Positions 2,095-63,520 of a stretch of DNA of 64,000 nt are shown here, in pieces (within the stretch, counting starts at the first letter, position 1; each line of letters begins with the position of its first letter). The notes under the pieces were generated by a model. It was not told where the DNA came from, made no database searches, and saw only the letters and a program-made list of their open reading frames with translations. The stretch is from Chthoniobacterales bacterium. GTDB lineage: Bacteria > Verrucomicrobiota > Verrucomicrobiia > Chthoniobacterales > UBA6821. The DNA is taken from assembly GCA_019747895.1 (NCBI GenBank), contig JAIEQF010000013.1, positions 67,104 through 131,103 on the forward strand, in the 5' to 3' direction. Position numbers and translations under genes: made by a program.

Positions 2095-2952
2095 TCACAT
2101 AGGAAGCAAGCCGACAAGGCGCATGGGAGCCTCGGTGCCATGAAGAGTCTTGATCGGAAGAGCCAAAATAAAACTTCCAGTTGGTGGCAGGCTGATAGAG
2201 TTGGCCACGTTTTCAACAATATATTTTTCAGATCCTAGAAAAGCCGCATGCACGGGATAGCCGCTCTCAGGCCGATCTGGAGAGAGTGTGTCGATGCCGA
2301 GGCCGACCGCTTTTCGCTGGATCAAGAAGTCGGCTGCTTCTTTGGAAACGGAAGGAAAGCGATAGTTGTTGTGATAGCGCTCTGGCTGATTCCAAAATTG
2401 ATCCCAGCCTGTTCTAATCAGAACAAAACTATTTGGCGCGATCATGCCCTCTTTTTTTTCAAAGAGTGCAAGATCATCGAGGGAGAGGGTGTAGCTTTCA
2501 TGAGCTTGCGCTGAGACATCGATCATCACGCAAGGTGCTATGAGATTGTTGAGATCTAGCTGTTCGACGGTTGCTTTTCCACGGCTGCAATGGGCTGGTG
2601 CATCGATGTGGGTTCCAATGCCGGCATGCATCTTGAGTTGTTGAACGCGAAAAGAAACATCGCTGGTTGTCAGATCGTAATCAAGTTTTACCTCCTGATG
2701 AAATCCACACGTGCCAGTCCATGAGGAGATTTTTTCATCGAGGGTGTGGGTCAGATCGATGATGTGATAAGGGAAAGCAGAGTCTGTCCAAATGCTACTG
2801 CTAGAGCGCAGGACTGCGTCACTCCGATGCTCGCGTCCTCGAGTATGTTCATATACACTGCGGGTCTGTGCTTCTCGTTCCTTGTCCTGCATCCCTAGCA
2901 GCGCATTTTGATCAGACTCGCCACTTACTATAGTAGCTAGATTTTTTTTCAT
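2095..2952 (-). CDS. Cyclase family / kynurenine formamidase-like metal hydrolase with a PE1 insert
   Basis: IIDLTHTL, HAGIGTHIDAPAH, GLGIDTLSPD, EAPMRLV motifs. Confidence 0.88.
   Translation of the reverse strand: MKKNLATIVSGESDQNALLGMQDKEREAQTRSVYEHTRGREHRSDAVLRSSSSIWTDSAFPYHIIDLTHTLDEKISSWTGTCGFHQEVKLDYDLTTSDVSFRVQQLKMHAGIGTHIDAPAHCSRGKATVEQLDLNNLIAPCVMIDVSAQAHESYTLSLDDLALFEKKEGMIAPNSFVLIRTGWDQFWNQPERYHNNYRFPSVSKEAADFLIQRKAVGLGIDTLSPDRPESGYPVHAAFLGSEKYIVENVANSISLPPTGSFILALPIKTLHGTEAPMRLVGLLPM
2780..2919. mobile_element. PE1 copy B (~140 bp), in frame in the cyclase gene, read in a third frame
   Basis: Ends gagtctgtccaaatgc / gcattttgatcagactc; core gcgtcactccgatgctcgcgtcctcgagt...atacact. 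Confidence 0.85.
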
Positions 2953-6483: not shown

Positions 6484-8685
6484 ATGAAAACAGAAAATTT
6501 TTTTTCACAATCTCTAGCAGGGACTGTTGTTTTTTTAGTGGCATTGCCACTTTCTCTCGGTATTGCTTTGGCCTCCGGAGCTCCTTTGATTTCCGGATTA
6601 CTCGGGGCAATGGTTGGTGGTCTTATAGTTGGAGTGATTAGTGGCTCTGAAGTGAGTGTTAGTGGACCTTCTGCGGCATTGGCTTCGATTGTTGTTCAAC
6701 AAATAGCAAGGCTTCATTCTTACGAAGCTTTTTTATTAGCCCTCTTTTTTGCTGGGATCATTCAAGTCATCATGGGCTTCTGCCGTGCAGGATTTATTGC
6801 AGAGTTTTTCCCAGCAAGTGTGATCAAAGGTCTTCTAGTAGCAACGGGTCTCTTGATCGCTCTCAAGCAGATTCCCCATCTTGTAGGATATGATCGAACT
6901 CCTTTTGGCTATGAAGAATTTTTGGAAGCAAATGGAGAAAATACCTTCAGTGAAATTATTAAAGCTTTCTCTCATTTTCAGCCTGGGGCCTTAACTATTG
7001 GTTTGATATCATTGGTAGTCTTAGTGGTATGGGAAGTCAGCAAATCGTTAAAAAAGTTTCCCATTCCAGCAGCGCTCATCGTTGTTGTTATTGCCATCGC
7101 GATTAATAAAGTCTTTCTTCACTTAGGAAGTTCGTGGGTTGTTGCTGCCTCTCAATTGGTCCAGATTCCTCAGATTGCAACACCGGAAGCATTTCTAAAG
7201 ACGATGAAATTTCCTGATGCTACTCAACTTTTTCAGCCTGCCATTTATGGTGCAGCCATGATGATTGCTTTCAGTGCTAGCTTGGAGAGCTTATTAAATT
7301 TAGAAGCGACGGATAAGATCGATCCTAATCAACGGGTCAGTTCTCCTCATCGCGAGTTGATTGCTCAAGGAGTTGGAAATATGTTGTTAGGATTAATCGG
7401 AGGAATGCCAATTAGTTGTGCCGTTGTTCGTAGTAGTGCGAATATTGATGCTGGGGGACGCTATCGATTTGCAACTATTGTTCATGGTCTTTTGCTCATG
7501 ATTAGCGTCTTGTTTTTGCCTGGGCTTATCAATCAAATCCCACTTTCTGTCTTGGCTGCTATTTTAGTTGTTGTCGGTTTTAAATTAGCAGCGCCTCGAT
7601 TTTTTATTAGTACGTGGAAAGAGGGGGGGAGTCAGTTTCTCCCTTTTATCATTACTGTTGTCGGTATTATTCTCACCAATTTTTTGGTTGGTGTTTTAAT
7701 TGGTCTTTCCATCAGTTTGCTCTTTCTCCTTTACACCAATTGGCAGCGTCCTGTTGTTGAGGTTGTAGAAAAACATGCAGCTGGAGAGGTCTTGCGCATT
7801 GCATTAGGAAACCAAGTGAGTTTTCTGAATCGTCCCTCGTTGGCCAGAGCATTAAATACTGTTTCTTCAAATAGTCACCTTCTGCTTGATGCTCGTAACA
7901 CCGATTATATTGATCCTGACATTCTGAGTCTCATTCATGATTTTCTTCGGACAAAAGCCAAGGTTCGAAATATTGTTGTGAGCCTTCTCGGTTTTAAAAA
8001 GAAATATTCCCGCTTAAAAAATATTATTCGTTATGTTGATTATTCGACTCAAGAGCTTCAATCAAAACTGGCTCCTGCTGAAGTGCTCGCGATTTTAAAA
8101 GAGGGGAATGAGCGCTTCCAAAAAGGAGCTCCCTTGTTTCGCGATTATCGGCTTCAAGTTCAAAAAACTGCGAGCGACCAATATCCGATGGGAGTTATTC
8201 TAAGTTGTATTGACAGTAGAGCGCCTGTCGAAATGATTTTTGATGCTGGGGTTGGTGATCTTTTCAGCATTCGCATGGCAGGTCAGGTAGCTCATGCCAA
8301 GGAGCTGGCGAGCATGGAGTATGGATGTGTGGTTGCTGGTGCTAAACTCATCGTGGTGCTAGGACATAGTTCTTGTAGTGCTGTGAAAGCTGCAGTTGAT
8401 TTTTTTCAACGTGGCGTCACAGCGCAACAAGAAACTGGCTGCGAGCATCTTGATTTATTATTGAAAGAAATTCAAAAGTCGATTGAGGCGAATATGCCTT
8501 TCTCTTTTTCTTCGCATGAAGAAAAAGCAACTTATATTGATGAGGTGGCGCGACGGCATGTTATGGCTACTATCTATTTTATTCATCAGGAAAGTCCTTC
8601 TCTCCATCGCCTCGCTCAAGAGGGAAAGATCGCTATTGTGGGAGCCTTTTATGATGTAGAGACTGGAAAGGTGGAGTTTCTTTAA
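6484..8685 (+). CDS. SulP-family anion transporter fused to a beta-carbonic anhydrase
   Basis: N-terminal SulP (VALPLSLGIALASGAP, GPSA, RSSANIDAG); C-terminal SCIDSRAPVE, LGHSSC motifs. Confidence 0.93.
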   Translation: MKTENFFSQSLAGTVVFLVALPLSLGIALASGAPLISGLLGAMVGGLIVGVISGSEVSVSGPSAALASIVVQQIARLHSYEAFLLALFFAGIIQVIMGFCRAGFIAEFFPASVIKGLLVATGLLIALKQIPHLVGYDRTPFGYEEFLEANGENTFSEIIKAFSHFQPGALTIGLISLVVLVVWEVSKSLKKFPIPAALIVVVIAIAINKVFLHLGSSWVVAASQLVQIPQIATPEAFLKTMKFPDATQLFQPAIYGAAMMIAFSASLESLLNLEATDKIDPNQRVSSPHRELIAQGVGNMLLGLIGGMPISCAVVRSSANIDAGGRYRFATIVHGLLLMISVLFLPGLINQIPLSVLAAILVVVGFKLAAPRFFISTWKEGGSQFLPFIITVVGIILTNFLVGVLIGLSISLLFLLYTNWQRPVVEVVEKHAAGEVLRIALGNQVSFLNRPSLARALNTVSSNSHLLLDARNTDYIDPDILSLIHDFLRTKAKVRNIVVSLLGFKKKYSRLKNIIRYVDYSTQELQSKLAPAEVLAILKEGNERFQKGAPLFRDYRLQVQKTASDQYPMGVILSCIDSRAPVEMIFDAGVGDLFSIRMAGQVAHAKELASMEYGCVVAGAKLIVVLGHSSCSAVKAAVDFFQRGVTAQQETGCEHLDLLLKEIQKSIEANMPFSFSSHEEKATYIDEVARRHVMATIYFIHQESPSLHRLAQEGKIAIVGAFYDVETGKVEFL

Positions 8686-8727
8686 ACCGATCTTGAAATC
8701 CTACTGTGGCGGCGAAGAGGTGTGTTG
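8683..8727. mobile_element. Truncated PE1 left end starting at the SulP-CA stop codon
   Basis: taaaccgatcttgaaatcctactgtggcggcgaagaggtgtgtt aligns with the left end of copy D (taaacctgccttgtaagttctactgagagagcgaagagctgcgtt). Confidence 0.6.
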
Positions 8728-8784: not shown

Positions 8785-10329
8785 ATGTCTGATTCTTCTC
8801 GAGTTTCCTTTTTTAAAAAAAAATCTGCACTTCCTGTTTTTGCACTACTCATCATTGCGGTAACTCTTTTCCGCTTTTGGTATGCCACGCAGCTTGAGTT
8901 GATCGGCGATGAGGCATATTACTGGTATTGCTCGCGGCATCTCGACTGGAGTTTTTTTGATAAGGGTCCTGGTGCTGCGGTGACGATTTTTTTTGGAACG
9001 CATCTTTTTGGAGACACCGTCTTTGGGGTTCGCTTTTTTGCCGTGCTGCTTTCGGCAGCCACTGGTATAGGCCTCTTTTTTCTTGCACGCATGCTTTTTT
9101 CACAACGTGTTGCTTGTTGGACCTTGCTTGTGGCGCTCTTCATGCCGCTCTACGCGGTGGGGAGCATTCTCATGACGATTGATCCGCTCAGTATTTTCTT
9201 TTGGACGATGGCGGCCATTACTTTTTGGAAAGCAACAAAAAGTGATGGAGTTTTATTTTGGATTATCACTGGAGCTTTTGTCGGTCTTGGAATGTTGGCC
9301 AAATATACAAACTTAGTTGAGTTGCTCTGCTTTGCTCTTTTTTGCCTTTGGAGTTCAGCGCAGCGACGTCAATTCAAACGGCCTCATTTCTACGTGATGT
9401 TAGTCACAGTGCTCTGTTTTTCTTTTCCTATGATCATTTGGAATTATGAACATCACGGCATTGGAATTGTTCATCTTCTTCACCGAGGTGATCTCGATCA
9501 CGCCTGGAGTATCAAACCCGTTGAGATCCTCACATTTCTTGGGGCGCAAGCCGGGGTCATTTCACCATTCTTTTTTCTTGGGGTCATGATTTCGGTTTTT
9601 TGGCCTCAATATGATACGCTTCATGCAGAGGCGACGCGTTATTTGCGTTCTCTTTTTATTCCTCTGTTTGTTTTTTATTCCTGCCTCAGTTTGAATAAAG
9701 CTGCGGAGCCGAATTGGACTGCTCCTTGCTATGTTGCAGGAATGGTCTTGCTTGCTGGTAATTGGCAGGCACTCGCGCGCCGTTGGCCATGGGCAAAGAA
9801 ATGGGTTGTGACTGCATTTGTGGTTGCTGCACTTGAGACCGTCCTGTTGCACAATACTTTTTGGCTGCATCTTCCTTTGCCTCAGTCTTGGAGCCAGAGT
9901 AAAAATCCGATCGTTCAAAAAATCAGTGAGGCCTATCGCAATCTTGGAGTTGTTGATCCTCTTGATCGAACGAGAGGAGCAACTTCCATTGCGCAACATG
10001 CTTTTGAGCTTTCTCAAAAATATGGAACCTCATTTTTTATTTCCGACAATTATCAAACAGCGAGTCTTCTAAGCTTTTATCTGCCAGGCCACCCCGATAC
10101 GTACGAGGCTGATTGGGGGCGGATCAAAGATCAGTTTTCGATTTGGCCTGGATATCACAAGTGTTATCCCATTGGAAGCAATGCTATCCTTGTGTACGAA
10201 TGGAGGTATCCACCAAAAGAAATGTGGTACGATTTTGCTCGGATGCCGCTTATTGACGAAAGCTATTCAACAATAGGAAAGAGACCACTCAAAAAGTATT
10301 ACTACTCTCTTTGCGAGAAATTACAGTGA
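8785..10329 (+). CDS. ArnT/PMT-like GT39 (GT-C) membrane glycosyltransferase
   Basis: DEAYYW, FDKGPG, MTIDP, LAKYT, IIWN motifs; many TM segments. Confidence 0.88.
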   Translation: MSDSSRVSFFKKKSALPVFALLIIAVTLFRFWYATQLELIGDEAYYWYCSRHLDWSFFDKGPGAAVTIFFGTHLFGDTVFGVRFFAVLLSAATGIGLFFLARMLFSQRVACWTLLVALFMPLYAVGSILMTIDPLSIFFWTMAAITFWKATKSDGVLFWIITGAFVGLGMLAKYTNLVELLCFALFCLWSSAQRRQFKRPHFYVMLVTVLCFSFPMIIWNYEHHGIGIVHLLHRGDLDHAWSIKPVEILTFLGAQAGVISPFFFLGVMISVFWPQYDTLHAEATRYLRSLFIPLFVFYSCLSLNKAAEPNWTAPCYVAGMVLLAGNWQALARRWPWAKKWVVTAFVVAALETVLLHNTFWLHLPLPQSWSQSKNPIVQKISEAYRNLGVVDPLDRTRGATSIAQHAFELSQKYGTSFFISDNYQTASLLSFYLPGHPDTYEADWGRIKDQFSIWPGYHKCYPIGSNAILVYEWRYPPKEMWYDFARMPLIDESYSTIGKRPLKKYYYSLCEKLQ

Positions 10330-13368: not shown

Positions 13369-14940
13369 ATGGAAAAACGTACGTTCGAGGCGCTCGGCCT
13401 CTCTCCCGAGATGATGAAGGCTGTGGCTCAACTTGGCTTTGAGGAAGCCTCGCCGATTCAAACAGCGGCTATTCCACTTTTATTAAGTGGTGCTGATGTT
13501 GTTGGGCAATCTCAAACCGGTTCTGGAAAAACAGCAGCTTATGCTATTCCAGCTATTGAAAAAATAGATCCGACGAGCAAAGCAGTTCAAGTCTTGGTTC
13601 TCTGCCCAACGCGCGAGCTAGCAACACAAGTTGCGGATGAAGTTTATAAGCTGACAGCTTTCAAACGAAATATTCATTGTGTTCCGATTTATGGCGGCGC
13701 TTCCTACGAGCGTCAGCTTTTTGAATTAAAAAAAGGAGTTCAAATTGTCATTGGAACGCCAGGTCGTGTCATGGATCACTTAGAGCGTGGCACATTGAAG
13801 TTGGATCAGATTAAGGTTGTTGTTTTGGATGAAGCGGATCGCATGCTCGACATGGGATTCCGTGATGATATTCAAGTCATTCTTGAAAAGACACCTGAAG
13901 ATCGACAGACAGTTTTCTTTTCGGCAACGCTTTCCAAGCCGATTCGCGATTTGATTAATCGTTTTTCACATGAACCACAGACCGTCAAGATCGAGCAGAA
14001 GGAATTGACTGTTCCAACGGTTGAACAATGGTTTTATGAAGTTCCTGGACGCATGAAGACTGAAGCGTTTATTCGACTTATCGATTTTCATGGCTACAAA
14101 CTTGGGATCATTTTTTGTAATACGCAACGGATGGTTGATGAACTGGCTGATGCACTCTTGGCGCAGGGATTTTCAACCGATCGTCTTCATGGCGGCATTC
14201 CGCAAGCTCAGCGGACCCGCGTGATGAATAAATTTAAAAACTCTGAATTTGAATTTCTTGTGGCAACCGATGTGGCAGGACGAGGGATTGATGTTGAGTC
14301 TTTAGAGCTCGTGGTCAATTACGATCTTCCATACGATCCCGAGGATTACGTGCATCGCATTGGACGCACAGGACGAGCTGGAAAAAAAGGAGTAGCCATG
14401 ACCTTTGTCACGGGTCGTGATATTTATAAACTTCAATTTATTGAACGCTACACCAAAACAAAAATTCGTCGTGGGATACTTCCGACAGTCGGAGAGGTTG
14501 AAGGAAAACGTGCAGAACAACTTTACGCAAAACTCCAGAAACAACTTCAACAAAACTCGTTCAAAAAACATGAGATCATCATGGATCGTTTGTTAGAAGA
14601 GGGATATTCTTCGACTGATATTGGATCTGCTCTCTTTTCAATGCTATTGGGAAATGCTCCTGAAGCCCCTAAAAAAGTCGCTGTAGAGCCTTCTCGCGAG
14701 CGCGAGTCGCAAGATTTTTCTTTTGCGCAAGCTAAGGGAGGTCGAGGTGGGCATCGTAATGACCGCCGAGAAGCTCCTCGTGGAGGTCAAGGTTTTAAAA
14801 GTGGTCCTCCTCGCCGTGATCGGGGCGAACAACGCAGCGGACCTCCAAGGCGCAATAGCGACTACCGAGCTGATGCACCAAGAAGTGGTTCTTTTAAAAA
14901 AGGGCCCGTGCGCAAATATTCGAAGGCAGAAAGAAATTAA
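13369..14940 (+). CDS. deaD: DEAD-box RNA helicase (DeaD/CshA-like)
   Basis: Q motif, GSGKT, PTRELA, DEAD, SAT, HRIGRTGR; RG-rich tail. Confidence 0.92.
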   Translation: MEKRTFEALGLSPEMMKAVAQLGFEEASPIQTAAIPLLLSGADVVGQSQTGSGKTAAYAIPAIEKIDPTSKAVQVLVLCPTRELATQVADEVYKLTAFKRNIHCVPIYGGASYERQLFELKKGVQIVIGTPGRVMDHLERGTLKLDQIKVVVLDEADRMLDMGFRDDIQVILEKTPEDRQTVFFSATLSKPIRDLINRFSHEPQTVKIEQKELTVPTVEQWFYEVPGRMKTEAFIRLIDFHGYKLGIIFCNTQRMVDELADALLAQGFSTDRLHGGIPQAQRTRVMNKFKNSEFEFLVATDVAGRGIDVESLELVVNYDLPYDPEDYVHRIGRTGRAGKKGVAMTFVTGRDIYKLQFIERYTKTKIRRGILPTVGEVEGKRAEQLYAKLQKQLQQNSFKKHEIIMDRLLEEGYSSTDIGSALFSMLLGNAPEAPKKVAVEPSRERESQDFSFAQAKGGRGGHRNDRREAPRGGQGFKSGPPRRDRGEQRSGPPRRNSDYRADAPRSGSFKKGPVRKYSKAERN

Positions 14941-14968
14941 CCGCAAAGAACGCAAAGAGCGCAAAGAA
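14936..14968 (+). repeat. 9-mer REP-like repeat beginning at the deaD stop codon
   Basis: attaaccgcaaagaacgcaaagagcgcaaagaa. Confidence 0.85.
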
Positions 14969-14975
14969 GATAGAG

Positions 14976-16874: not shown

Positions 16875-18368
16875 ATGTTTTCCCGTCTTTCCGATCAACT
16901 TCAACAAACTTTTAAAAATCTCCGAGGCCAAGGACGTATCACCGAGGCCAATATTTCTGAAGCGCTCCGCGAAGTCCGCCTTGCCTTGCTTGACGCCGAT
17001 GTTCATTTTCAAGTTGCCAAGGATTTTATTGCGAGAGTCAAAGAAAAAGCCTTAGGAGAGACGGTTCTAAAAAGCGTTGCTCCAGGGCAGCAGATCATCA
17101 AAATTTTTCAAGATGAGTTAACGCAATTACTCGGCGGAGATGCCGCTCCTCTTAATTTAAACAAGCCAGCGCGCATTTTAATGGTCGGACTGAATGGTGC
17201 AGGAAAAACAACTTCTTCTGCCAAGTTAGCAAAATGGTTAAAAGCACAAGGGCAACATCCGATGCTCGTAGCGCTTGATTTGGTCAGGCCAGCAGCTATT
17301 GAGCAGCTTGTGACGTTAGGAAAACAAATCGAGGTTCCTGTTTTTGCGCCAGTAGACTTCTTCCGAAACTCTACTTCTGACGCGAATTGCGGCGTCGCTC
17401 CGGTGCTCGCGTCATCGAGTATTAATTATACACTCAGCCGCTGTGCGCCGGAGGCTCCTGGCACTTCGTCGCCAGAAGCGAGTTTTGAAAAAAGTCTAGT
17501 GCCTGGTTCTACTAATGTTTTAGCGGTGGCTCGTGAAGCTCTTGCTTGGTGTGAGCAGCAACATGGCAATGTGACTATTTTTGATACAGCGGGACGTCGA
17601 GAAATTGATGAGGCGCTTGTGAATGAATTGAGTCAATTAAAAGAGTTGTTCCAACCACAGGAGATTTTATTGGTTTGTGACGGAGCTACCGGACAACAGG
17701 CAGTGAGTGTCGCGGAACGATTTCACGCAGCACTCGGGCTAACGGGGCTCATTCTTACTAAATTAGATGGTGATGCTCGTGGTGGCGCTGCTCTTTCTTT
17801 GCGTTCAGTGACTGGGAGGCCGATTAAATTTGTGGGTGTCGGAGAGAAGCTTGATCAATGGGATCTGTTTCATCCTGATCGCCTCGCGGGACGTATTCTT
17901 GGAATGGGAGATATTGTTAGTTTTGTCGAAAAAGCAGCAGAGGCTGTTGAGATGGATGAGATGATGCAATTGGAGAAAAAATTAAAAACATCTTCCTTGG
18001 ATCTGAATGATTTTTTAGCTCAGTTGAAAATGATTCGACGGATGGGGCCCTTAGAAAATCTTGTTGGGATGTTGCCTGGGGGAGCGAAACTTCCTCCCAA
18101 TGTCACGAATGGAAAAGAACTCACCAGGATAGAAGCCATCATTTTTTCAATGACTCTCGAGGAACGAAAACGCCCGGAGATCCTTAATGCACGCCGTCGC
18201 CATCGGATTGCGCAGGGGAGTGGTACCACGGTAACGGAAGTCAATAGCCTCCTTCTTCGCTTTCAGCAACTCAAGAAGATGACAAAAAACATGGGGAATA
18301 TGAAAAAAATGCTGGCCCAATTCGGGAAAAGCGGATTAAATATGCCCAACCGTTCTTGGAGAGCATAA
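16875..18368 (+). CDS. ffh: Signal recognition particle protein Ffh with a 48-aa PE1 insert in the GTPase domain
   Basis: GLNGAGKTT, DTAGR, TKLDGDARGG, RILGMGD and M-domain motifs. Confidence 0.96.
   Translation: MFSRLSDQLQQTFKNLRGQGRITEANISEALREVRLALLDADVHFQVAKDFIARVKEKALGETVLKSVAPGQQIIKIFQDELTQLLGGDAAPLNLNKPARILMVGLNGAGKTTSSAKLAKWLKAQGQHPMLVALDLVRPAAIEQLVTLGKQIEVPVFAPVDFFRNSTSDANCGVAPVLASSSINYTLSRCAPEAPGTSSPEASFEKSLVPGSTNVLAVAREALAWCEQQHGNVTIFDTAGRREIDEALVNELSQLKELFQPQEILLVCDGATGQQAVSVAERFHAALGLTGLILTKLDGDARGGAALSLRSVTGRPIKFVGVGEKLDQWDLFHPDRLAGRILGMGDIVSFVEKAAEAVEMDEMMQLEKKLKTSSLDLNDFLAQLKMIRRMGPLENLVGMLPGGAKLPPNVTNGKELTRIEAIIFSMTLEERKRPEILNARRRHRIAQGSGTTVTEVNSLLLRFQQLKKMTKNMGNMKKMLAQFGKSGLNMPNRSWRA
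17353..17498. mobile_element. PE1 copy C (146 bp), in frame in ffh
   Basis: Ends tagacttcttccgaaactc / gagttttgaaaaaagtcta, TA at both ends; deleting 144 bp restores VPVFAPV-VPGSTNVLAVAREAL. Confidence 0.95.
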
Positions 18369-22200: not shown

Positions 22201-22968
22201 ATGAAATGTGTCATTTTAGCAGGTGGCCTTGGAACCCGCATTAGCGAAGAAACGGTGCTCAAGCCAAAACCAATGGTAGAAATCGGAGGGAAGCCCCTTC
22301 TTTGGCATGTGATGAAAATTTATTCCGCACATGGCATTAACGACTTCATTATCTGTGCTGGCTACAAGGGATATTTGATCAAAGAATATTTTGCTAACTA
22401 TTTTCTGCACATGTCAGATGTTACTTTTGACATCAAAGAAAATAGTATGGAGGTTCATGAGCGTTATGCTGAGCCATGGAAAGTGACCGTTGTGGATACG
22501 GGAGAGGAGACGATGACTGGAGGGCGTTTAAAAAAAGTAGCTCGTTATCTTGGAGCCGAGACGTTTTGTATGACCTATGGTGACGGAGTGGGAGATGTTG
22601 CTATTCCAAAGGTTTTAGAAGCACATCATTGCAGTCAGCGCAAAGCCACCATCACTGCAGTGCAGCCACCAGGGCGCTTCGGAGCGCTTCATCTTGAAAA
22701 TGATGCCGTCGCTCATTTTATTGAAAAGCCAGAGGGTGATGGCGCTTGGATTAATGGTGGTTTTTTTGTTTTAGAGCCAGAGGTGCTTTCCTACATCGAG
22801 CATGATCAGATCATCTGGGAACGAGAACCCTTGCAGCGCCTTGCTCAGGAAAAAGAATTGTCGGCTTATCAACATCATGGTTTTTGGCAGCCAATGGACA
22901 CCCTTCGTGACAAGCAGCTGCTTGAAGAGTTGTGGCATAAGGGGCAGGCTCCGTGGAAGATTTGGTAA
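22201..22968 (+). CDS. rfbF: Glucose-1-phosphate cytidylyltransferase
   Basis: [43 protein letters not shown]. Confidence 0.96.
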
Positions 22969-23111
22969 ACCTGCCTTGTAAGTTCTACTGAGAGAGCGAA
23001 GAGCTGCGTTACTCCGGTGCTCGTCGCTTCACGTATTAGATATACGCTCAGCGCCTGTGCTCCGAGGCGCCTTGCTCTTCATCACTCTCAGCGAACTTCC
23101 AAAGCAGGTTA
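22967..23111. mobile_element. PE1 copy D, intergenic, starting at the rfbF stop codon
   Basis: Ends aacctgccttgtaagttc / gaacttccaaagcaggtt; core ctccggtgctcg...tatacgctcagcgcctgtgc. Confidence 0.88.
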
Positions 23112-23145
23112 TCATTTGAGAGGGAGAGTATACTCTCCTGTAGTA

Positions 23146-23306
23146 ATACCATCTTTAATAATTACTAAGACCATTTGACTTGTTCTTTTGGCGCTGAGCA
23201 TCGTTGTCATCCCTAGCGTTATCTTTGGATAGCGCTTCGGTCTGACGCCTTGCTTAACGCCAAAACTCCTGCCTCAAATAATCTCATTAATTATTAAAGA
23301 TGGTAT
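23146..23306. mobile_element. PE2 palindromic element / MITE-like, copy 1
   Basis: Perfect 19-bp terminal inverted repeat ataccatctttaataatta; internal gacttgttcttt...gcgttatc-tttg-gatagcgc...aaaactcctgc. Confidence 0.85.
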
Positions 23307-28468: not shown

Positions 28469-29160
28469 TTCCAAATAGACCGCTCTCAAAACTCGCTGAT
28501 GGTGATGAAGCGCAAGGAGGCGACGGCGCACAGCGACTGAGTGTACAAGAGCATACAGCCGGCTGGGAGGCCGCTGGATCAAATGCCGAAGGCAGCCCCA
28601 GAGGGGCGAGCCTCGCGGGAGCGAGCGAGTTGCTCCTCGATGGCGCGAGCGCCGGCGCGACACAGCGCTTCGCATCAGCAGTAGAGTTTGGAAAGCGGTC
28701 TAAAATCAAAGCAATCGTTCTCGATATAGATGGAGTCTTAACTGATGGGACTTTTTGGTGGGATCTTAATGGTGGTGAACAAAAACGTTTTAGTTTTCGT
28801 GATGTGATGGGGATTGTGCGAGCAGGACGAAAGGGAATTTTATTTGCACTCATTTCTGGAGAAGAAAATGTCATGGTCGATCGCCTTGCTGCAAAACTGA
28901 ATATTGATTCTGTTTATCAGGGATGTTCTGACAAAGCCTCAGCTCTTCGCTCTTTTGCAAAAGAAAAAAATCTTTCACTCTCAGAAATTTGTTTTATGGG
29001 AGATGACATCAATGATCTTGACGCGATTGAGATTGCAGGCTATTCCGCAGCTCCTGCAAATGCTCATGAAAGCGTCTTGAGTGCGGTCGATTTTGTTGTA
29101 AGAAAATCGGGAGGCGATGGAGCTGTGAGAGAGTTAATTGATTCTTTAGTTGCGATATGA
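28465..29160 (+). CDS. KdsC-like HAD phosphatase with a 75-aa PE1 insert after residue 4
   Basis: LDIDGVLTDG, ISGE, MGDDINDL, GGDGAVRE; ATGA overlap with the neuB-like stop supports the start. Confidence 0.9.
   Translation: MIPNRPLSKLADGDEAQGGDGAQRLSVQEHTAGWEAAGSNAEGSPRGASLAGASELLLDGASAGATQRFASAVEFGKRSKIKAIVLDIDGVLTDGTFWWDLNGGEQKRFSFRDVMGIVRAGRKGILFALISGEENVMVDRLAAKLNIDSVYQGCSDKASALRSFAKEKNLSLSEICFMGDDINDLDAIEIAGYSAAPANAHESVLSAVDFVVRKSGGDGAVRELIDSLVAI
28476..28702. mobile_element. PE1 copy E, long form (227 bp), in frame
   Basis: Ends tagaccgctctcaaaactc / gagtttggaaagcggtcta; carries an extra ~81-nt central module shared with copy H. Confidence 0.93.
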
Positions 29161-38706: not shown

Positions 38707-38848
38707 TCGGACTATTGTGACTTATTCTTTTGCTCCCTAGCTTCGTTGTCAGAGCTTACGTTATGCTTGCATAGCGCCTCACTCTTCTGACTTGCTAGAA
38801 ACCAAAACTCCTGCGTCCTATAGTCTCATTATTTAATGGAAGTGGTAT
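38687..38848. mobile_element. PE2 copy 2, between two convergent genes
   Basis: Perfect 21-bp terminal inverted repeat ataccacttccattaaataat; same internal motifs as copy 1. Confidence 0.85.
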
Positions 38849-41720: not shown

Positions 41721-41925
41721 CCACAAAGAACTACAAAAAAAGAAGAAATTAACCGCAAAGAAGGAAATACAAAAAGTTGAAGGTAGAGGCTTCCTTGGTT
41801 AATGTTCTGTATTCATTCGCATGAGAATCGAAGCTTATGAATTTGAGAGAGCAAGCTGCTGTCAGATTTTTTCTTTGCGTTCCTTGCGGTTAATTATTTT
41901 TCCTTATGTTATTTTGCGGTTAATT
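41716..41925. repeat. Inverted 9-mer REP-like pair between sufC and sufB
   Basis: aattaaccacaaagaa...ttaaccgcaaagaa (41716-41763) versus ttctttgcgttccttgcggttaat...ttgcggttaatt (41869-41925). Confidence 0.8.
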
Positions 41926-43354: not shown

Positions 43355-43389
43355 AAAAAAGAATGAGTCACAAAGAATATTTAGAAAAA

Positions 43390-43590
43390 AGAATAGCCAC
43401 AAAAGAACGCAAAGAACGCAAAGAAAGAAAATTGAGCTGATAGCATATTCTTTAGTGTCGCTTGCAATCTACTTTTGAATGCAGGAAAAGTAAGCGAGGT
43501 AGTATTATTTTTTGCGTTCTTTGTGTTCTTTTGTGGCTATTCTCTTCTTTTCCTTAAGTTACTTTATGGCTATGCTCTTCGCGGTTAATT
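43390..43590. repeat. Inverted 9-mer REP-like pair between sufB and sufD
   Basis: gaatagccacaaaagaacgcaaagaacgcaaagaa versus ttttgcgttctttgtgttcttttgtggctattc. Confidence 0.85.
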
Positions 43591-46057: not shown

Positions 46058-47154
46058 TCAGCTCCCGGGCGCTGATAGCGAAAGCCACTGAGGGTTGGTG
46101 TCGTTGAAATCTTTTTTCCAAGACCCAGGAATTTAAACGAGCGGCCCATGGTTTCTGGGTGTAGCAGTGTCTGTAGAAGACGAAATTCTTTTTGCTCAGC
46201 AGGTGTGAGCATTTTATTTTCAAACGTTCGCAACCAAGCTTCGGAGGCTCCAATAAGAAAATGATGCTGATCACTATAGCCGAGGATTTCAAAATGATGT
46301 TGCAGCGCTTTCTCAGCAAGGTCGGTAAAATCGACATGGGCTGTGATGTCGCGCTTGCCAATATTCTCAAAAGGATTGTCGTAGCGCTGATGGTTTTCAT
46401 AACAGGCAATGCTTCCTTCCGCTCGGTAAGAGGCAAAGCGATCGACTCCCGCATACCCATAATCTGCGACGAGGATCATGCCTCGCTTCATCCGTGCCTC
46501 AATAGCTTGCAGCCAGGGAGCGATGCCAAGCCGCACTTCCCATAAAAATCCCGGAGCAAGATCGCGCGGTAGTTTTTTTGCGACGCTCTGGAGTTCCTCT
46601 TGTTCGATCGGAAGCGTGATCCAATCATTTGCTGTCACACGTTGTTCTTGCCACTCCCCATCATTCCAGCGGAGCAAGTGAACAGGGAAGGCATCTAGAA
46701 GTTCATTCGAAAAATGGACGCCTTCAAATTCTGGGAGGTCCTCAAGTTTTTCTACCCAGAAAACATTTCGATGGTGCTTCAATGTCTCTTGCTGTTTTTT
46801 TTGATGAATAAAAAAAGGCTCAATGATGTAGTAGTGGATCGCAGAAAAAAAATCTGATGAGGCTTCCGCTGCCTCCAAAATATCGAGGGCCAGCCTTCCG
46901 TCGTTGGCTCCTTGTTCTAGGAGCGTGAAAGGTTTTGGTCGGCCCATTTTTTCCCAGAGCTCTTTAAAAAAGAGTGCCAAAATTTTCCCGTAAATTTTTC
47001 CCACGCTTACATTGGTAAAAAAATCACCAGCTTTGCCAATGTGGACGCGACCAGAAGCGTAGTAGCCCTGCTCAGGATCGTAGAGAGCCTGCTCCATAAA
47101 TTGGGCGAAGGAGATGGAAGGGGAATTCACAGCGATGAAAAAATTATTAACCAC
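46039..47154 (-). CDS. SAM-dependent methyltransferase, MidA/NDUFAF7 family
   Basis: FAQFMEQALYDP..GYY, GDFFT, EQGANDG, SNELLDAFP, DYGY, DITAHVDF; start uncertain. Confidence 0.9.
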   Translation of the reverse strand: MVNNFFIAVNSPSISFAQFMEQALYDPEQGYYASGRVHIGKAGDFFTNVSVGKIYGKILALFFKELWEKMGRPKPFTLLEQGANDGRLALDILEAAEASSDFFSAIHYYIIEPFFIHQKKQQETLKHHRNVFWVEKLEDLPEFEGVHFSNELLDAFPVHLLRWNDGEWQEQRVTANDWITLPIEQEELQSVAKKLPRDLAPGFLWEVRLGIAPWLQAIEARMKRGMILVADYGYAGVDRFASYRAEGSIACYENHQRYDNPFENIGKRDITAHVDFTDLAEKALQHHFEILGYSDQHHFLIGASEAWLRTFENKMLTPAEQKEFRLLQTLLHPETMGRSFKFLGLGKKISTTPTLSGFRYQRPGADYLFGS

Positions 47155-58845: not shown

Positions 58846-60354
58846 ATGAGATACCAGAGCTGGCTAACTATATATCTTTTTTTCTTTTATGGAAGTTCTC
58901 TTCTTGTTGCCGTAGAAAGTTCTTTTCAAGAAAAGCATGCTGCTACTGCTGGACCAGAGATAGGACAACAGCCAGCTGCCTATATTAAAGCTGCTGCTGC
59001 GCCAGTTCCAGCAGTGCCTCAGTTTTCTTCTCAAAAAAGTTATAACCTGGGAAACTTAATTGATCTTGCGCTGAATAATAATCCTTCTACCCGCGCAGCA
59101 TGGAGTCAGGCAAAAGCTGCTTCAGCCTCCGTAGGAGAGGCGCGTTCTCTTTACTATCCGTGGGTGAAAGCTGGTTTTACTGGAGGGTACGACCAGAATT
59201 ATCTTCCTCTTACTACAGGTCTTAATGTTTATAACCGGACTCAGGCCACGGTCTTTTTTAGCTTGGAATATATTTTGCTCGATTTTGGGCGAAGGGATGC
59301 TGATGTGGCACGAACGATTGCTACCTTCAATGCGCTTGGTCTAACGTACCAGCGTAAGTTGCAAGAAATTATTTTTGCCGTCCAAAAAGTTTATTTTGCG
59401 CACGAGGCTGCTCTTTGGAAAAAAAAGGCAGCAGAAACGAACCTCGCTTTTTTATCAACCCTAGCTGACATGATTGCCCGAGAAAATGTTACTGGTTTGT
59501 CAGCAGGACCAGAGCTGCTCAAAGCACGAAAACAAGTTCTTGAAGCCCAGTACGAGGTGGAGTCCGCTAGGGCGAAGGTCAAAAATACATTAGGAGAGCT
59601 CTGCGTTGCCACAGGGCTTCCAGCTAATACGCCTTTGCAAATCACAACGACAGAGCGTCCTGTTTCGACCAAAAAACTACGAGGAGATGCCAATGAATTA
59701 GTGCGTCGGGCGCTTGTCTTTCGTCCTGATATTGCCGCTCGTGTAGCTGAGCTGAAAGCCAGTAAAGAAGCCACGCGACGAGCCATTGCTGATTTTTTTC
59801 CTGTTATTAAACTGCATTCAGACTATATCAACAGCACTTTTGGATATACCGCGACTGATGGGACCTTGAATGGAACATATGGTGGAGGTGGGATTTCTGG
59901 GGTTAATGGTTTTGTCATGGCGAGCTGGGATATTTTTGATGGTTTGGAGCGCATCTTTAAAGTTCGGCAGCGACAAGAAGAAGATAAAGTTGCTGAACGA
60001 AACTTAGAGCAGACAAAGTTGAATACAACACGAGATGTTTGGACTTCTTACAATGATAGTTTGACAGCAGAGCAAAGGGTTAATTTTGCTGAAGGATATG
60101 TGGCCTCTGCTAAAGAAACATTTGATGCCGTCAAAACGGCCGTAGAGACAGGTTTAACGAATGTTACTGATTTTGCTGAGTCAGGGAGTAATGTTGCTAA
60201 TGCTGATTCAGAATTGGCTAGTGCTGTCGCGGACTATTCGACAGCATTGGCGCTGCTTGCATTTTCAGTGGGAACTACGACTCCTGCGCCTTCTCGTGTT
60301 CCTGAAGACTTGGGAAAGCCGGGAGAGTTGAAGTTAAGAGCGTTGTCGTTTTAA
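58846..60354 (+). CDS. TolC-family outer-membrane efflux protein
   Basis: ALNNNPS, LLDFG, RPDI, WDIFDG motifs. Confidence 0.9.
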   Translation: MRYQSWLTIYLFFFYGSSLLVAVESSFQEKHAATAGPEIGQQPAAYIKAAAAPVPAVPQFSSQKSYNLGNLIDLALNNNPSTRAAWSQAKAASASVGEARSLYYPWVKAGFTGGYDQNYLPLTTGLNVYNRTQATVFFSLEYILLDFGRRDADVARTIATFNALGLTYQRKLQEIIFAVQKVYFAHEAALWKKKAAETNLAFLSTLADMIARENVTGLSAGPELLKARKQVLEAQYEVESARAKVKNTLGELCVATGLPANTPLQITTTERPVSTKKLRGDANELVRRALVFRPDIAARVAELKASKEATRRAIADFFPVIKLHSDYINSTFGYTATDGTLNGTYGGGGISGVNGFVMASWDIFDGLERIFKVRQRQEEDKVAERNLEQTKLNTTRDVWTSYNDSLTAEQRVNFAEGYVASAKETFDAVKTAVETGLTNVTDFAESGSNVANADSELASAVADYSTALALLAFSVGTTTPAPSRVPEDLGKPGELKLRALSF

Positions 60355-60368
60355 AATGACTAAAAAAA

Positions 60369-60507
60369 ATTAACCGCAAAGAACGCAAAGAGCGCAAAAA
60401 AAGACAGGGAAAGAGCAGTGGAAATTTTTATTCTTTGCGTTCTCTGCGTTCTTTGCGGTTAATTTTCTTCTTCTTTTCTTTTGGTTTTTGTGTTCTTTGT
60501 GGTTAAT
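60369..60507. repeat. Inverted 9-mer REP-like pair
   Basis: attaaccgcaaagaacgcaaagagcgcaaaa versus ttctttgcgttctctgcgttctttgcggttaat. Confidence 0.85.
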
Positions 60508-60518
60508 CCAAATTTTTC

Positions 60519-62939
60519 ATGAAAAACCTAACTCGCTTCTTAATCACACTTGCTTTGGTTGCCGTTGCTGCTCGAGGAGGTGATCAAAAACTTCCCATTG
60601 CACAACAAAATGCGCTTGATGAAAACAGTGTTCTCTTTGTGCCGCAAGGCTACGACGCGAAGACCAATCCTTCGTTTGCCTTTGAACAACCGCTTAAGCC
60701 ACTTGGGCCTGTTCCTAAACATTGGAAACTCTTTCCTCGTTTTTCATCAGATGTAAAAACAACAAAGGTGATTCTTGATGTTCCCTTCCAAGCCTCTCTC
60801 TATGGGACAGGGGAGGTGACTGGTCCGCTCTTGCGTAATGGAAAGAAAATCACGCTCTGGAATACTGATAGCTCAACTTACGCTGTTGCTCATGGCAAGC
60901 GCCTTTATCAAACGCATCCGTGGGTGTTGGGAGTGCGTCTTGATGGAACCGCTTTTGGTATTATTTTTGACACAACGTGGAAAGCAAAATTGGAGACAAC
61001 GTCACATCAGATCGTTTTAATGAGTGAAGGTCCTCCATGTCGCGTGGTTATCATCGAGGGAAAAAATCCACAAGTCGTCGTTCGCAAGCTGGCGGATCTG
61101 ACCGGAAAAATGCCACTTCCGCCAAAATGGGCGATTGGCTTTCAACAATGCCGCTATTCTTATTATCCCGATGCAAAGGTGCGTGAGATTGCCGATCAAT
61201 ATCGTGCTCGTCATCTGCCGTGTGATGTCATCTGGCTCGACATTGATTACATGGATGGGTATCGCAGTTTTACGTTTGATCCAAAGCGTTTTCCTGATCC
61301 TAAGGCCACGAATGACTATTTGCACGAGCATGGCTTTCACTCTGTTTGGATTATTGATCCTGGAATCAAGATTGATCCTAACTATTTTGTCTATCAACAG
61401 GGGACAAACCTGCTTTCAAATTCTACTGAGGCTGTGAATAACAGCGTCGCGCCGGTGCTCGCGTCATCGAGTAGCAACTCGCTCGCTCCCGCGAGTCTCG
61501 CCCTTACGGGCTGCCTAACGGCAGTCGATCCAGCGGCTGCCACGCCGCATGTATGTAGAGATACACTCAGCCGCTGTGCGCCGTCGGCTCCTTCTTCTTC
61601 ACTACCCTCAGCGAATTTTAAAGCAGGTTTGCGAGCAGGGGGGGTGAATACTGCTTGGGTGCTGACTAAAAATGGTCAACCGTTTCATGGCACTGTCTGG
61701 CCGGGAGATTCTGTCTTTCCTGATTTTACGATGCCTGCCGTGCGGCATTGGTGGTCGGAACTCTATCATGATTTCTTAGCTCAAGGAGCTGATGGCATTT
61801 GGAACGATATGAATGAACCTTCGGTTTTTAATGGTCCTCGTCAGACGATGCCTGAAAATAATTGGCATCGCGGAGGAGGGGGGCTTCCTTCTGGTATTCA
61901 TCGGATGTATCACAATGTTTATGGAATGCTGATGGCATCAGCAACGCGGGCTGGTATCTTGCACGAGCGTCCTGACAAACGTCCGTTTCTTTTGTCACGC
62001 TCCAATTATCTCGGGGGCCAGCGCTATGCGACCACATGGACTGGAGACAATAGTTCCGGGATGCATTATTTGAAAATGTCGATTCCGATGGGGCTCAATC
62101 TTGGTCTTTCGGGATCGCCTTTTAATGGGGTTGATCTTGGTGGTTACGCGGGGAGAGAAAACCCTGATCTTTTTGGAAAATGGATTGTGATGTCAGCCTT
62201 TTTTCCTTTCTCGCGAGCTCACACAGCCACCTACAATCCTCCGAGAGAGCCATGGGTTTTTGGACCCAAAATTGAAACCGTCACTCGTGTCGCTTTGGAA
62301 CGGCGATATCGCATGTTGCCTTACCTCTACACGCTCTTCCACAAAGCCTCGCAATACGGTGATCCGATCATGCAGCCAGTTTTCTTTGCTGATCCCAAAA
62401 ACTTGTTGCTTCGTTCTGAAGATCAAGCTTTTCTTTTGGGGACAGATCTCTTGGTGGTGCCGCGTTGGGCTCGCTTTCCACGGTTGCCGGGAGGTATTTG
62501 GCGTGATGTTTCTCTTCTTCCCGGAAAACGGGAGGAAGATGGATATCAGCCTCGCATCAAGATCCGCGGTGGTGCCATTGTGCCACTCGGTCGGGTGATT
62601 CAAAACACCAACGAAGAATCACTGAAGCCGTTGACGTTGCTTGTTTGTCTCAATGAAAAAGGGGAAGCGCGTGGAAGTCTCTACGAAGACGCTGGCGAAG
62701 GCTTCGGTTATAAAACGGGAGACTATGCGCTGACGCATTATCACGCCATTCGCAAAGGAAAGACCGTAATGGTCACCATGGAAAAGCGAGAAGGGAATCG
62801 CGCTATTCCAGATCGTCCCGTCCATGTGCAGTTGGTCGTCAATGGTCCAGACTTAGAAAAGAGCGGTTTTGAATCAGGAGGGGTTGTCTTAAAGCTGCCT
62901 CTCAACCTCTATGAAAAAATAGCAGAAAAAACAAAATAA
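60519..62939 (+). CDS. GH31 alpha-glucosidase with a 75-aa PE1 insert
   Basis: IWLDIDYM, IIDPG, GIWNDMNEP (nucleophile), TWTGDN, RYRMLPYLY. Confidence 0.93.
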   Translation: MKNLTRFLITLALVAVAARGGDQKLPIAQQNALDENSVLFVPQGYDAKTNPSFAFEQPLKPLGPVPKHWKLFPRFSSDVKTTKVILDVPFQASLYGTGEVTGPLLRNGKKITLWNTDSSTYAVAHGKRLYQTHPWVLGVRLDGTAFGIIFDTTWKAKLETTSHQIVLMSEGPPCRVVIIEGKNPQVVVRKLADLTGKMPLPPKWAIGFQQCRYSYYPDAKVREIADQYRARHLPCDVIWLDIDYMDGYRSFTFDPKRFPDPKATNDYLHEHGFHSVWIIDPGIKIDPNYFVYQQGTNLLSNSTEAVNNSVAPVLASSSSNSLAPASLALTGCLTAVDPAAATPHVCRDTLSRCAPSAPSSSLPSANFKAGLRAGGVNTAWVLTKNGQPFHGTVWPGDSVFPDFTMPAVRHWWSELYHDFLAQGADGIWNDMNEPSVFNGPRQTMPENNWHRGGGGLPSGIHRMYHNVYGMLMASATRAGILHERPDKRPFLLSRSNYLGGQRYATTWTGDNSSGMHYLKMSIPMGLNLGLSGSPFNGVDLGGYAGRENPDLFGKWIVMSAFFPFSRAHTATYNPPREPWVFGPKIETVTRVALERRYRMLPYLYTLFHKASQYGDPIMQPVFFADPKNLLLRSEDQAFLLGTDLLVVPRWARFPRLPGGIWRDVSLLPGKREEDGYQPRIKIRGGAIVPLGRVIQNTNEESLKPLTLLVCLNEKGEARGSLYEDAGEGFGYKTGDYALTHYHAIRKGKTVMVTMEKREGNRAIPDRPVHVQLVVNGPDLEKSGFESGGVVLKLPLNLYEKIAEKTK
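61405..61631. mobile_element. PE1 copy H, long form (227 bp), in frame in GH31
   Basis: Ends caaacctgctttcaaattc / gaattttaaagcaggtttg (18/19 complementary); central module shared with copy E. Confidence 0.94.
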
Positions 62940-62982: not shown

Positions 62983-63192
62983 ATGCCAAAAGCAATCGCA
63001 CGTAGTAAAACAAAGAAGTCTGTTGCAAAACGATTCAAAATCACAGCGACAGGTAAAGTCATTCGCTCCAAAGCCGGACGCCGCCACTTGCTGGAATGTA
63101 AGAATTCCAAGTTAAAACGCAATATGGGCAAACGCGCTGTGGTGGAAGCTTGTGATGTGAATCATATCAAAGCAAACCTCCCTTGGGGATAA
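62983..63192 (+). CDS. rpmI: 50S ribosomal protein L35
   Basis: KTKKSVAKRFKITATGK...GRRHLLECK; precedes rplT. Confidence 0.95.
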   Translation: MPKAIARSKTKKSVAKRFKITATGKVIRSKAGRRHLLECKNSKLKRNMGKRAVVEACDVNHIKANLPWG

Positions 63193-63332
63193 TTTCCTCA
63201 TAAATTCTACTGATGCAGCGAGGAACGGCGTCATGTCGGTGCTCGCGTCATCGAGTATTAATTGTACACTCAGCCACTGTGCGCGGCCGTTACTTGTTCC
63301 TTATCTGCCTTAGCGAATTTCTAAGGGAATTA
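63190..63332. mobile_element. PE1 copy I, intergenic, starting at the rpmI stop codon
   Basis: Ends taatttcctcataaattc / gaatttctaagggaatta; core cggtgctcgcgtcatcgagtattaattgtacactcagcc. Confidence 0.9.
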
Positions 63333-63520
63333 TTATGTATTGATAGATTTTGCGTTGGCAAGGAGCTCAGTAACTGATAAATTATAACTTCAATTTTTAA
63401 AACGATTCATGGAACTGGGTATTTGTACAAATACTCTAACCGGGCGGGTGAGTTCCTGAATCATTAACTAACAAACAGCCTGCCCGAGGAGACTCTTTGC
63501 GAAAGCAAAGAGAATTACAT

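Follow-up and report, generated by a model that had tools for sequence, protein, structure and literature searches.

The DNA considered here is a stretch of 64,000 nucleotides (nt) from a Chthoniobacterales bacterium (contig JAIEQF010000013.1; hereafter, the window), which contains nine copies of a palindromic repeat of about 146 nt, designated PE1, located both within protein-coding genes and in intergenic regions. An initial annotation had proposed that PE1 is translated in three different frames and is kept open in several of them, which would lower its cost to the host and yield unrelated peptides from one DNA. The anatomy, mobility and reading frames of the element were analysed in the window and in related genomes and compared with those of palindromic elements described in other bacteria.

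Results

PE1 copies in the window

The reading frame of each copy was assigned from the codon phase at a shared alignment column, the phase along the whole alignment and the translations. Three plus-strand copies were read by their host genes in the same sense frame (...NST..VAPVLASSS..TLSRC...), namely those at 17353-17498, corresponding to residues 160-208 of Ffh, at 49912-50057, corresponding to residues 116-164 of MutL, and at 61405-61631, corresponding to residues 296-371 of a GH31 protein, whose TIM-barrel Pfam match is split into two by the insert. A single antisense frame (RPLSK...AVEFGKRS) was used in three other genes. The copy at 1902-2047 occupies residues 12-61 of a family-2 glycosyltransferase (GT2) encoded on the minus strand (1207-2082), with the Pfam domain starting from residue 62; the copy at 28476-28704, on the minus strand, covers residues 4-80 of a KdsC-like protein; and an old, diverged copy at 48449-48595, on the plus strand, corresponds to residues 171-220 of the conserved protein encoded on the minus strand at 47331-49106. 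The copy at 2777-2921 is a diverged member of a shorter subfamily (B) and falls in the first 59 codons (approximately codons 12-59) of a minus-strand open reading frame (ORF) at 2095-2952. This gene encodes a cyclase or kynurenine-formamidase-like protein of 285 residues, with an N-terminal extension of 58 codons and a Pfam Cyclase domain from residue 65, and reads the element along a mosaic third antisense path. The remaining two copies, at 22967-23112 and 63189-63334, are intergenic and lie on the plus strand; the former belongs to a 145-nt subfamily and is part of no long ORF, its sole stop-free frame extending just 22 codons past the element, and the latter has 145 nt and stops in all six frames. 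Codon phase and translations agreed for both the sense and the antisense groups and the cyclase frame was off-phase in both arms of the element, confirming the grouping of these genes in the initial annotation.

Anatomy and mobility of the element

PE1 measures 144-146 nt and consists of a 144-nt core with terminal arms AGAC...GTCT, the inverted repeats reading TAGACyTCTTTC...GAAAGArGTCTA, flanked by a 3-bp target duplication with the consensus A-N-T. No transposase gene is present and the passenger frames are the sole reading frames. A standard insertion, i.e., core plus duplication, therefore adds 147 nt, exactly 49 codons. The duplication was identical on both flanks in 16 of 40 copies of 146 nt, versus 5.0 expected by permutation and a maximum of 12 over 5000 permutations. 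A long hairpin was predicted in all copies tested, with z values of -4.8 to -6.8 against dinucleotide shuffles (-6.2 for the cyclase copy).

Sources of PE1 were sought with an exact 28-mer and with a looser 25-position pattern, and both matched only metagenome contigs and Verrucomicrobia or Chthoniobacterales metagenome-assembled genomes (MAGs), the latter originating from Lac Pavin, a deep cast of Lake Tanganyika and other sources. The DNA sequencing runs holding parts of the locus were mostly freshwater, drinking-water and wastewater metagenomes. The set of copies was assembled from the window, four Verrucomicrobia/Chthoniobacterales MAGs and freshwater metagenome contigs (fetched loci are indicated by L numbers), and a profile search of all fetched loci returned 98 copies, 81 of which were unique.

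Besides Ffh, MutL, GH31 and KdsC, the host proteins included IleRS, PheS, DnaX, NuoG, an HI0933-like protein, an epimerase, a cytochrome c assembly protein, MurD, an OprB porin and PIG-L. Many of these hosts are conserved and several are essential, and in dozens of conserved genes the Pfam domains resume in phase past the insert. The presence of the element varied between close relatives at KdsC, GT2, the cyclase, IleRS and PMT_2, the last being filled in L008 and empty in the window. KdsC occurred in three states: an insert-free protein of 155 amino acids (aa), in which MIP is directly followed by KIKAIVLD (L076); a form with 49 residues between MIP and KIKA (L077); and the composite form of the window, which corresponds to the L077 arrangement plus a nested element of 27 codons. 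The filled and empty sites differed by 147 nt net, inserted after codon 3, and the original start, forming an ATGA overlap with the stop of the upstream gene, was kept. As the ancestral start is retained upstream, the insert lies inside the ancestral coding sequence. A TA target duplication, typical of Tc1/IS630-like elements, was considered and rejected, since TA is absent from the empty KdsC site and the insertion adds a net 147 nt instead of 144.

The GT2 site was empty in L006, L007 and L008, where the protein has 240-245 aa, and the window GT2 is 99.6% identical to an insert-free relative. In Ffh, PE1 replaces a 6-residue strand-helix loop of the G domain (in comparison with B. subtilis Ffh, 7o5b), and the K_DeepCast Ffh, showing 87% protein identity, carries an element at the same site. 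These two inserts are of different arm type and 6 codons apart, so that an ungapped codon comparison between them could not be used as evidence; synonymous sites in the flanks are near saturation (rate of synonymous substitution, dS, about 1.5). In L038, the MutL orthologue is without the window insert and contains an independent sense copy elsewhere, in the MutL linker (L038:5383-5526). PE1 is small, has terminal inverted repeats and a predicted hairpin, duplicates its target, and is present as scattered copies at sites that are filled in some relatives and empty in others; it is a non-autonomous palindromic mobile element, that is, a transposable element of the miniature inverted-repeat type (MITE), of freshwater Chthoniobacterales (Verrucomicrobiota).

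Several features of individual copies were also recorded. PE1 is oriented on the plus strand in eight of the nine window copies, irrespective of the strand of the host gene, the copy at 28476-28704 being the one marked as minus strand. This copy and that at 61405-61631 are composite, with a GC-rich segment of 81 nt at their centre (about 28552-28633 and 61474-61560); the segment is itself a dispersed repeat, also present in L057, L041, L017, L068, L026 and L020, and adds 27 codons that are open in both PE1 host frames. Two copies per ORF were found in L023:755-3397, L024:1994-4552 and L025:2375-4273, these two-copy ORFs comprising one sense plus one antisense composite, two antisense copies, and two sense copies in MurD. 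An isolated left-arm fragment (profile positions 12-55, E about 3e-4) lies at 8682-8725, at the 3' end of the ORF 6484-8685, and is kept in a close relative (L006 4193-4236). Finally, the spacer between the cyclase and GT2 genes and the first 11 or so GT2 codons are markedly unlike those of the relative with 99.6% identity (2083-2094 versus L006 10868-10917), the spacer consisting of 50 nt with CCTGTAA-like repeats in L006 and of 12 nt in the window, which suggests that a rearrangement accompanied the insertion of PE1 at GT2.

Reading frames and stop codons

Copies were defined as genic when a stop-free frame reached at least 100 codons beyond the element. Fifty of the 81 unique copies (62%) were located in such long ORFs. 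The sense frame accounted for 26 of them and the canonical antisense frame for 21, which left 3 copies in other phases. These three copies represent two independent events, both at N-termini: the cyclase frame, shared by the window and its L006 orthologue (one event, two copies), and L041:4071-4892 (P0244; one copy), in which a related off-phase path occurs at the N-terminus of a HAD-like protein. The tally supports two of the proposed frames and does not support the third as a regular one. The length of the element followed the same distinction, as length plus one was divisible by three in 38 of 40 genic copies, compared with 3 of 15 among the non-genic ones (Fisher p = 8e-8). The cyclase copies of the window and of its orthologue account for the two exceptions among genic copies, and the non-genic copies mostly came from the 144-145-nt subfamilies.

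The occurrence of stop codons was evaluated by comparing 40 copies of 146 nt with 8000 dinucleotide shuffles. The host sense frame was open in 85% of the copies, with 0.15 stops per copy (shuffles, 13% open and 1.85 stops), and the host antisense frame in 78%, with 0.35 stops per copy (shuffles, 9% open and 2.2 stops). The other two sense frames were each open in 15% of the copies, with 1.08 and 1.85 stops per copy versus 13-14% open and 1.85-1.89 stops in the shuffles, and the other two antisense frames in 0%, with 3.62 and 2.40 stops versus 8-9% open and 2.2-2.3 stops. The four non-host frames thus had stops at or near the shuffle expectation, the two antisense ones being closed in 40 of 40 copies, and the six-frame total was mildly low (9.45 versus 12.35 +/- 2.6). 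Even where the host did not use it, the frame of the opposite strand remained open, in 11 of the 19 copies hosted in sense and in 13 of the 18 hosted in antisense. Stop depletion exceeded that expected from composition in one frame per orientation and not in the other four; the element is therefore open in two frames, and the idea of three frames kept open was not sustained.

The sense and antisense peptides showed no similarity to each other, in agreement with the earlier proposal that unrelated peptides are obtained from one DNA. The possibility that the two frames are mirror images was discarded, because the first base of the core falls on the third codon position in sense and on the first in antisense, and because the peptides are dissimilar. 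A second open sense frame was likewise rejected: internally open in 26 of the 40 copies, it was never used and is closed at the element end, because the terminal base makes TAG (TAGAC...) in that phase. As a rule, genic PE1 copies use one frame per orientation, and these two frames are very probably translated.

Probable translation of the inserts

The initial annotation had reported no alternative start between the insert and the conserved domain in GT2, the cyclase and KdsC. We confirmed that ATG, GTG and TTG are absent between the insert and the conserved N-terminal motifs of the three proteins, the first downstream starts being located 17 (GT2), 49 (cyclase) and 34 (KdsC) codons on, inside or beyond essential motifs. 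In general, the inserts lie within the coding sequence of their hosts and are almost certainly translated, as had been anticipated; for the cyclase, translation is likely.

For the two main frames the case for translation, though indirect, is strong; it draws on the in-phase continuation of host domains, the length rule, the occupied Ffh site and the preservation of one old antisense copy. The last of these, the copy in the 47331-49106 protein, was present and open in five orthologues showing 70-86% identity. The segment contained no stop or frameshift, although the DNA similarity to PE1 fades from E = 1e-35 to undetectable levels, and its ratio of non-synonymous to synonymous substitution rates (dN/dS) was 0.23-0.70, versus 0.06-0.15 in the flanks. 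A database search with the 49-residue sense peptide returned two candidates only.

The cyclase copy

The cyclase gene reads PE1 as ESDQNALLGMQDKEREAQTRSVYEHTRGREHRSDAVLRSSSSIWTDS. Its phase agrees with that of the other antisense copies only in the middle 23 nt or so (SVYEHT versus SVQEHT or GVYKE), because of a 1-nt insertion and a 2-nt deletion in this copy, which are common to a small subfamily including L030, L008:17107-17246 and the orthologous L006 copy. The path crosses three stop-free stretches, following one non-canonical antisense phase over its first half, the canonical phase over a short piece and the other non-canonical antisense phase over its second half. Apart from the cyclase copies, members of this subfamily are intergenic, and in those from the fetched loci the cyclase path is broken. 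The path works in the cyclase only because the copy is at the N-terminus, a position that also tolerates lengths not divisible by three. The third frame arose accidentally, through the N-terminal insertion of a member of a shorter subfamily, and is not a third property of the family.

Insert-free cyclase orthologues, with 85-88% identity, have 229-236 aa and start with M(A/T)SSMSFPY or MSFPY, while the window cyclase and a relative showing 96% identity read DSAFPY at the ancestral start and have lost the ancestral ATGs. The ORF is preserved in this 96%-identical relative, and the cyclase core is under purifying selection in comparison with L006 (ratio of non-synonymous to synonymous polymorphism, pN/pS, 0.17). 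As the ancestral ATG is gone and the next canonical start lies past invariant residues, the most likely start of the protein is either the ATG at 2952 or one within the element, at codon 21; the product would begin with MKKNLATIVSGESDQNALLGMQDK in the first case and with M21 in the second. In either case at least part of PE1 would be read in the third path, making translation of the third frame in the cyclase likely.

When the third-frame peptide was compared with 1.84 billion representative proteins, eight matches were obtained. Six were short ORFs of 53-81 aa, or of 113-116 aa with nested inserts, which look like calls on intergenic PE1 copies; P0244 is a real gene with the same N-terminal arrangement as the cyclase, and there was one further match.

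At the empty cyclase site of L008 (about 9985-10000), ATTTTGGACAG occurs just upstream of the ATG and resembles the terminal arm CATTTGGACAGACTC of the window cyclase copy (2777-2795); this likeness could be due to chance, to microhomology at the target or to a remnant. Two cyclase homologues, P0015 and P0029, contain an independent canonical antisense PE1 after KLDYDxxxS.

Discussion

The closest counterparts of PE1 are the Rickettsia palindromic elements (RPEs; Ogata et al. 2000, as summarised in PMC10969869, PMC2229807, PMC1166351), palindromic repeats of about 105-150 bp forming long hairpins, which occur in intergenic regions and in-frame in many unrelated conserved genes, adding about 50 residues to their products. 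The product of an RPE-bearing gmk gene is translated and active, and RPEs are regarded as tolerated rather than functional (PMC10969869, PMC2229807, PMC1166351). PE1 shares with them the palindrome of about 146 nt, the hairpin, the in-frame location in conserved protein genes and the peptide of about 50 residues. The two systems differ in the host, a free-living freshwater member of the Verrucomicrobiota for PE1 and an obligate intracellular alphaproteobacterium for RPE, in the nearly equal use of both orientations by PE1 (26 : 21), each of which has a separate frame and gives an unrelated peptide, and in the clear 3-bp target duplication of PE1, with 147 nt added. The genic share also differs, with 50 of 81 sampled PE1 copies versus 85 of the 728 R. 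felis RPEs found within ORFs (PMC1166351). Since the host phylum differs, PE1 is treated as a new family working like RPE, and a literature search yielded no paper describing the PE1 family in Chthoniobacter or Verrucomicrobia. PE1 is a clear and abundant RPE-like system in free-living Verrucomicrobia and not a new principle.

Open frames fused with host genes have also been described for several MITEs, including the 107-bp Correia/NEMIS, ERIC/IRU, YPAL, BOX, BRE and the Coxiella QMITE, which have terminal inverted repeats, target duplications and RNA hairpins and give rise to internal, 5' or 3' ORF fusions (PMC2229807, PMC3184786, PMC5896051). Multi-frame use is also known among them, the 107-bp Correia element being read in two frames and ERIC forming frame-shifted fusions (PMC2229807, PMC3184786, PMC5896051). 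In Neisseria, the 107-bp Correia form has open frames inside genes, while the 155-bp form has stops in all frames and is intergenic (PMC2229807), a division matched by that between the 146-nt and the 144-145-nt subfamilies of PE1. However, Correia, ERIC, YPAL, BOX, BRE and QMITE elements are mostly intergenic, whereas the sampled PE1 copies are mostly internal in-frame inserts in housekeeping genes. Assignment to REP/BIME elements, which are 20-40 bp long and only intergenic, was rejected on the basis of the 146-nt length and of the share of sampled copies found in ORFs.

We consider it quite probable that PE1 is a gene-dwelling MITE read in one fixed frame per orientation, whose passenger peptides are tolerated and whose survival is filtered by phase. 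The standard element is stop-free in one frame per strand, so that a genic insertion in either orientation is harmless to the reading frame if it occurs in one permissive phase. According to this model, such insertions would persist in loops, linkers or N-termini and be translated as passenger peptides, while all other insertions into genes would be lost, and this loss would leave genic copies essentially in two frames with two unrelated peptides. With age, copies would come to behave like any other protein segment under weak constraint. The cyclase copy comes from a shorter, normally intergenic subfamily whose length is not a multiple of three, and it landed at the start codon; the ancestral ATG has been lost, and the ORF now runs from an upstream ATG through three element phases that are stop-free by chance. 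The sequences themselves show the anatomy, the frames with their tally, the filled and empty sites, the length rule, the depletion of stops in two of the frames and the long preservation of one antisense copy; translation, the selective filter and the cyclase start site are inferred. The suggestion that open frames lower the cost of the element is a plausible reading; the same explanation has already been given for the Rickettsia palindromic elements and is therefore not new.

Different interpretations were also taken into account. The N-terminal inserts of the cyclase, GT2 and KdsC might be untranslated, with starts located downstream, perhaps at rare codons, and upstream frames that are artefacts of ORF calling. 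The three inserts do directly precede the first conserved residues, codons that rarely serve as starts (ATT, ATC, CTG) occur 1-8 codons past each of the three elements, and most database matches to the third frame are short, spurious-looking ORFs of 53-116 aa on intergenic copies. We regard this explanation as unlikely, given the absence of canonical starts ahead of the essential motifs, the survival of the original KdsC start (MIP, with the ATGA overlap) upstream of an insert of exactly 49 codons, or 76 with the nested element, and the ATG kept by GT2, followed by codons resembling the ancestral N-terminus; moreover, 48-77 open codons in three genes would hardly be expected if unread, about 9-13% of shuffles being open per frame. 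A distinct functional role, in which the PE1 segment is a protein module selected in each host and not a tolerated passenger, would agree with the long retention and the several invariant residues of the copy in the 47331-49106 protein and with the proteins containing two copies. It is nevertheless very improbable, because two unrelated peptides are used about equally often in functionally unrelated proteins, close relatives without the insert show no other changes, the dN/dS of the old copy is 3-8 times the flank value, and the same subfamilies also have intergenic copies.

Even less credit can be given to the view that the insert-bearing genes are pseudogenes whose frames are open because the insertions are recent and undecayed. 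Some insertions are indeed recent, as in GT2, and an RNA run holding the locus is not listed; however, the hosts include the single-copy essential genes Ffh, PheS, IleRS, DnaX and MurD, the copy in the 47331-49106 protein is open across five lineages with segment dS values of 0.3 to 1.0, the Ffh site is occupied in a genome with 87% protein identity, the cyclase core has maintained a pN/pS of 0.17 since the insertion, and genic copies obey the multiple-of-three rule. Removal or skipping of PE1 before the protein is completed, by RNA excision at the hairpin, translational bypassing or intein-like splicing, would make its frames irrelevant and is suggested by the very stable mRNA hairpin predicted in every copy tested. 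T4 gene 60 and the byp elements of Magnusiomyces mitochondria are examples of short structured mobile inserts in coding sequences whose genes stay functional, and bypassed inserts need be neither stop-free nor a multiple of three in length. Genic PE1 copies, unlike bypass elements, strictly keep both features, the old copy in the 47331-49106 protein has a dN/dS below 1, and no Rfam family, introns and ribozymes included, matched anywhere in the window; a segment of 49 residues without conserved junction residues is also far too small for an intein. A self-splicing intron, intein or bypass element was accordingly rejected, and removal or skipping appears extremely improbable.

Some points weigh against the model of a gene-dwelling MITE read in two frames. 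The loci were fetched by an exact left-arm pattern, a sampling bias that favours well-conserved copies. PE1 copies are related by descent, so that the excess of open frames cannot be counted as independent events and stop depletion is best read as a property of master copies; for a single master, one open frame per strand arises by chance in about 11% of shuffles. An autonomous element with matching ends was not noticed among the partial matches in the fetched loci, no dedicated search having been made. The sequencing runs listed for the locus include no RNA run, and the whole stretch is contained in no run. With regard to the cyclase, its extension differs between the window and the relative by four substitutions only, two synonymous and two non-synonymous, and rare starts are possible at ATT codon 56, ATC codon 66 or 67 and CTG codon 69 of the stop-to-stop ORF. 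The AlphaFold model of the protein is weak (alignment of 17 sequences, mean predicted local distance difference test score of 63), and the low confidence of residues 1-57 is at most suggestive.

A further hypothesis, about which we are more hesitant and which we hold slightly less likely than its opposite, is that PE1 is a MITE lineage specialised for genes, its length, duplication and open frames being kept by selection among element lineages. If this were the case, the element could colonise the roughly 90% coding part of a compact free-living genome. Essential proteins, Ffh, PheS, IleRS, DnaX and MurD among them, would be left with lasting segments of 49 residues, peptide diversity would be increased further by nested elements and by variants with a shifted phase like the cyclase copy, and protein tinkering of the RPE type would be a general strategy and not a quirk of reduced intracellular genomes.

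The best-known in-frame palindromic inserts in housekeeping proteins are those of Rickettsia, and such inserts have been connected with the odd biology of reduced intracellular genomes; PE1 provides a free-living example with unusually clear rules, namely a gain of 147 nt, a duplication of 3 bp and a single permissive frame for each orientation. The stages of the process are visible, from the empty site to the fresh insert and to the insert kept through deep divergence, making PE1 a good system for examining how proteins tolerate and then absorb random 49-residue segments; the claim of three frames adds little to this picture. A warning also follows for MAG annotation, as genes that carry an insert are intact, and the short hypothetical ORFs called on PE1 copies between genes are probably spurious.

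Other repeats in the window

A second repeat family, resembling AAAGAACGCAAAGAACGCAAAGAA, occurs mostly as close inverted pairs in intergenic gaps, at 669-726/1169-1221, 14923-14969, 41724-41914, 43385-43555, 47146-47330 and 60352-60507, and may be another palindromic element or a terminator-like module. Two pairs of direct repeats were also detected, one at 23176-23306 and 38718-38848 (131 nt, 73% identity) and the other at 54655-54822 and 55087-55254 (168 nt, 96% identity).

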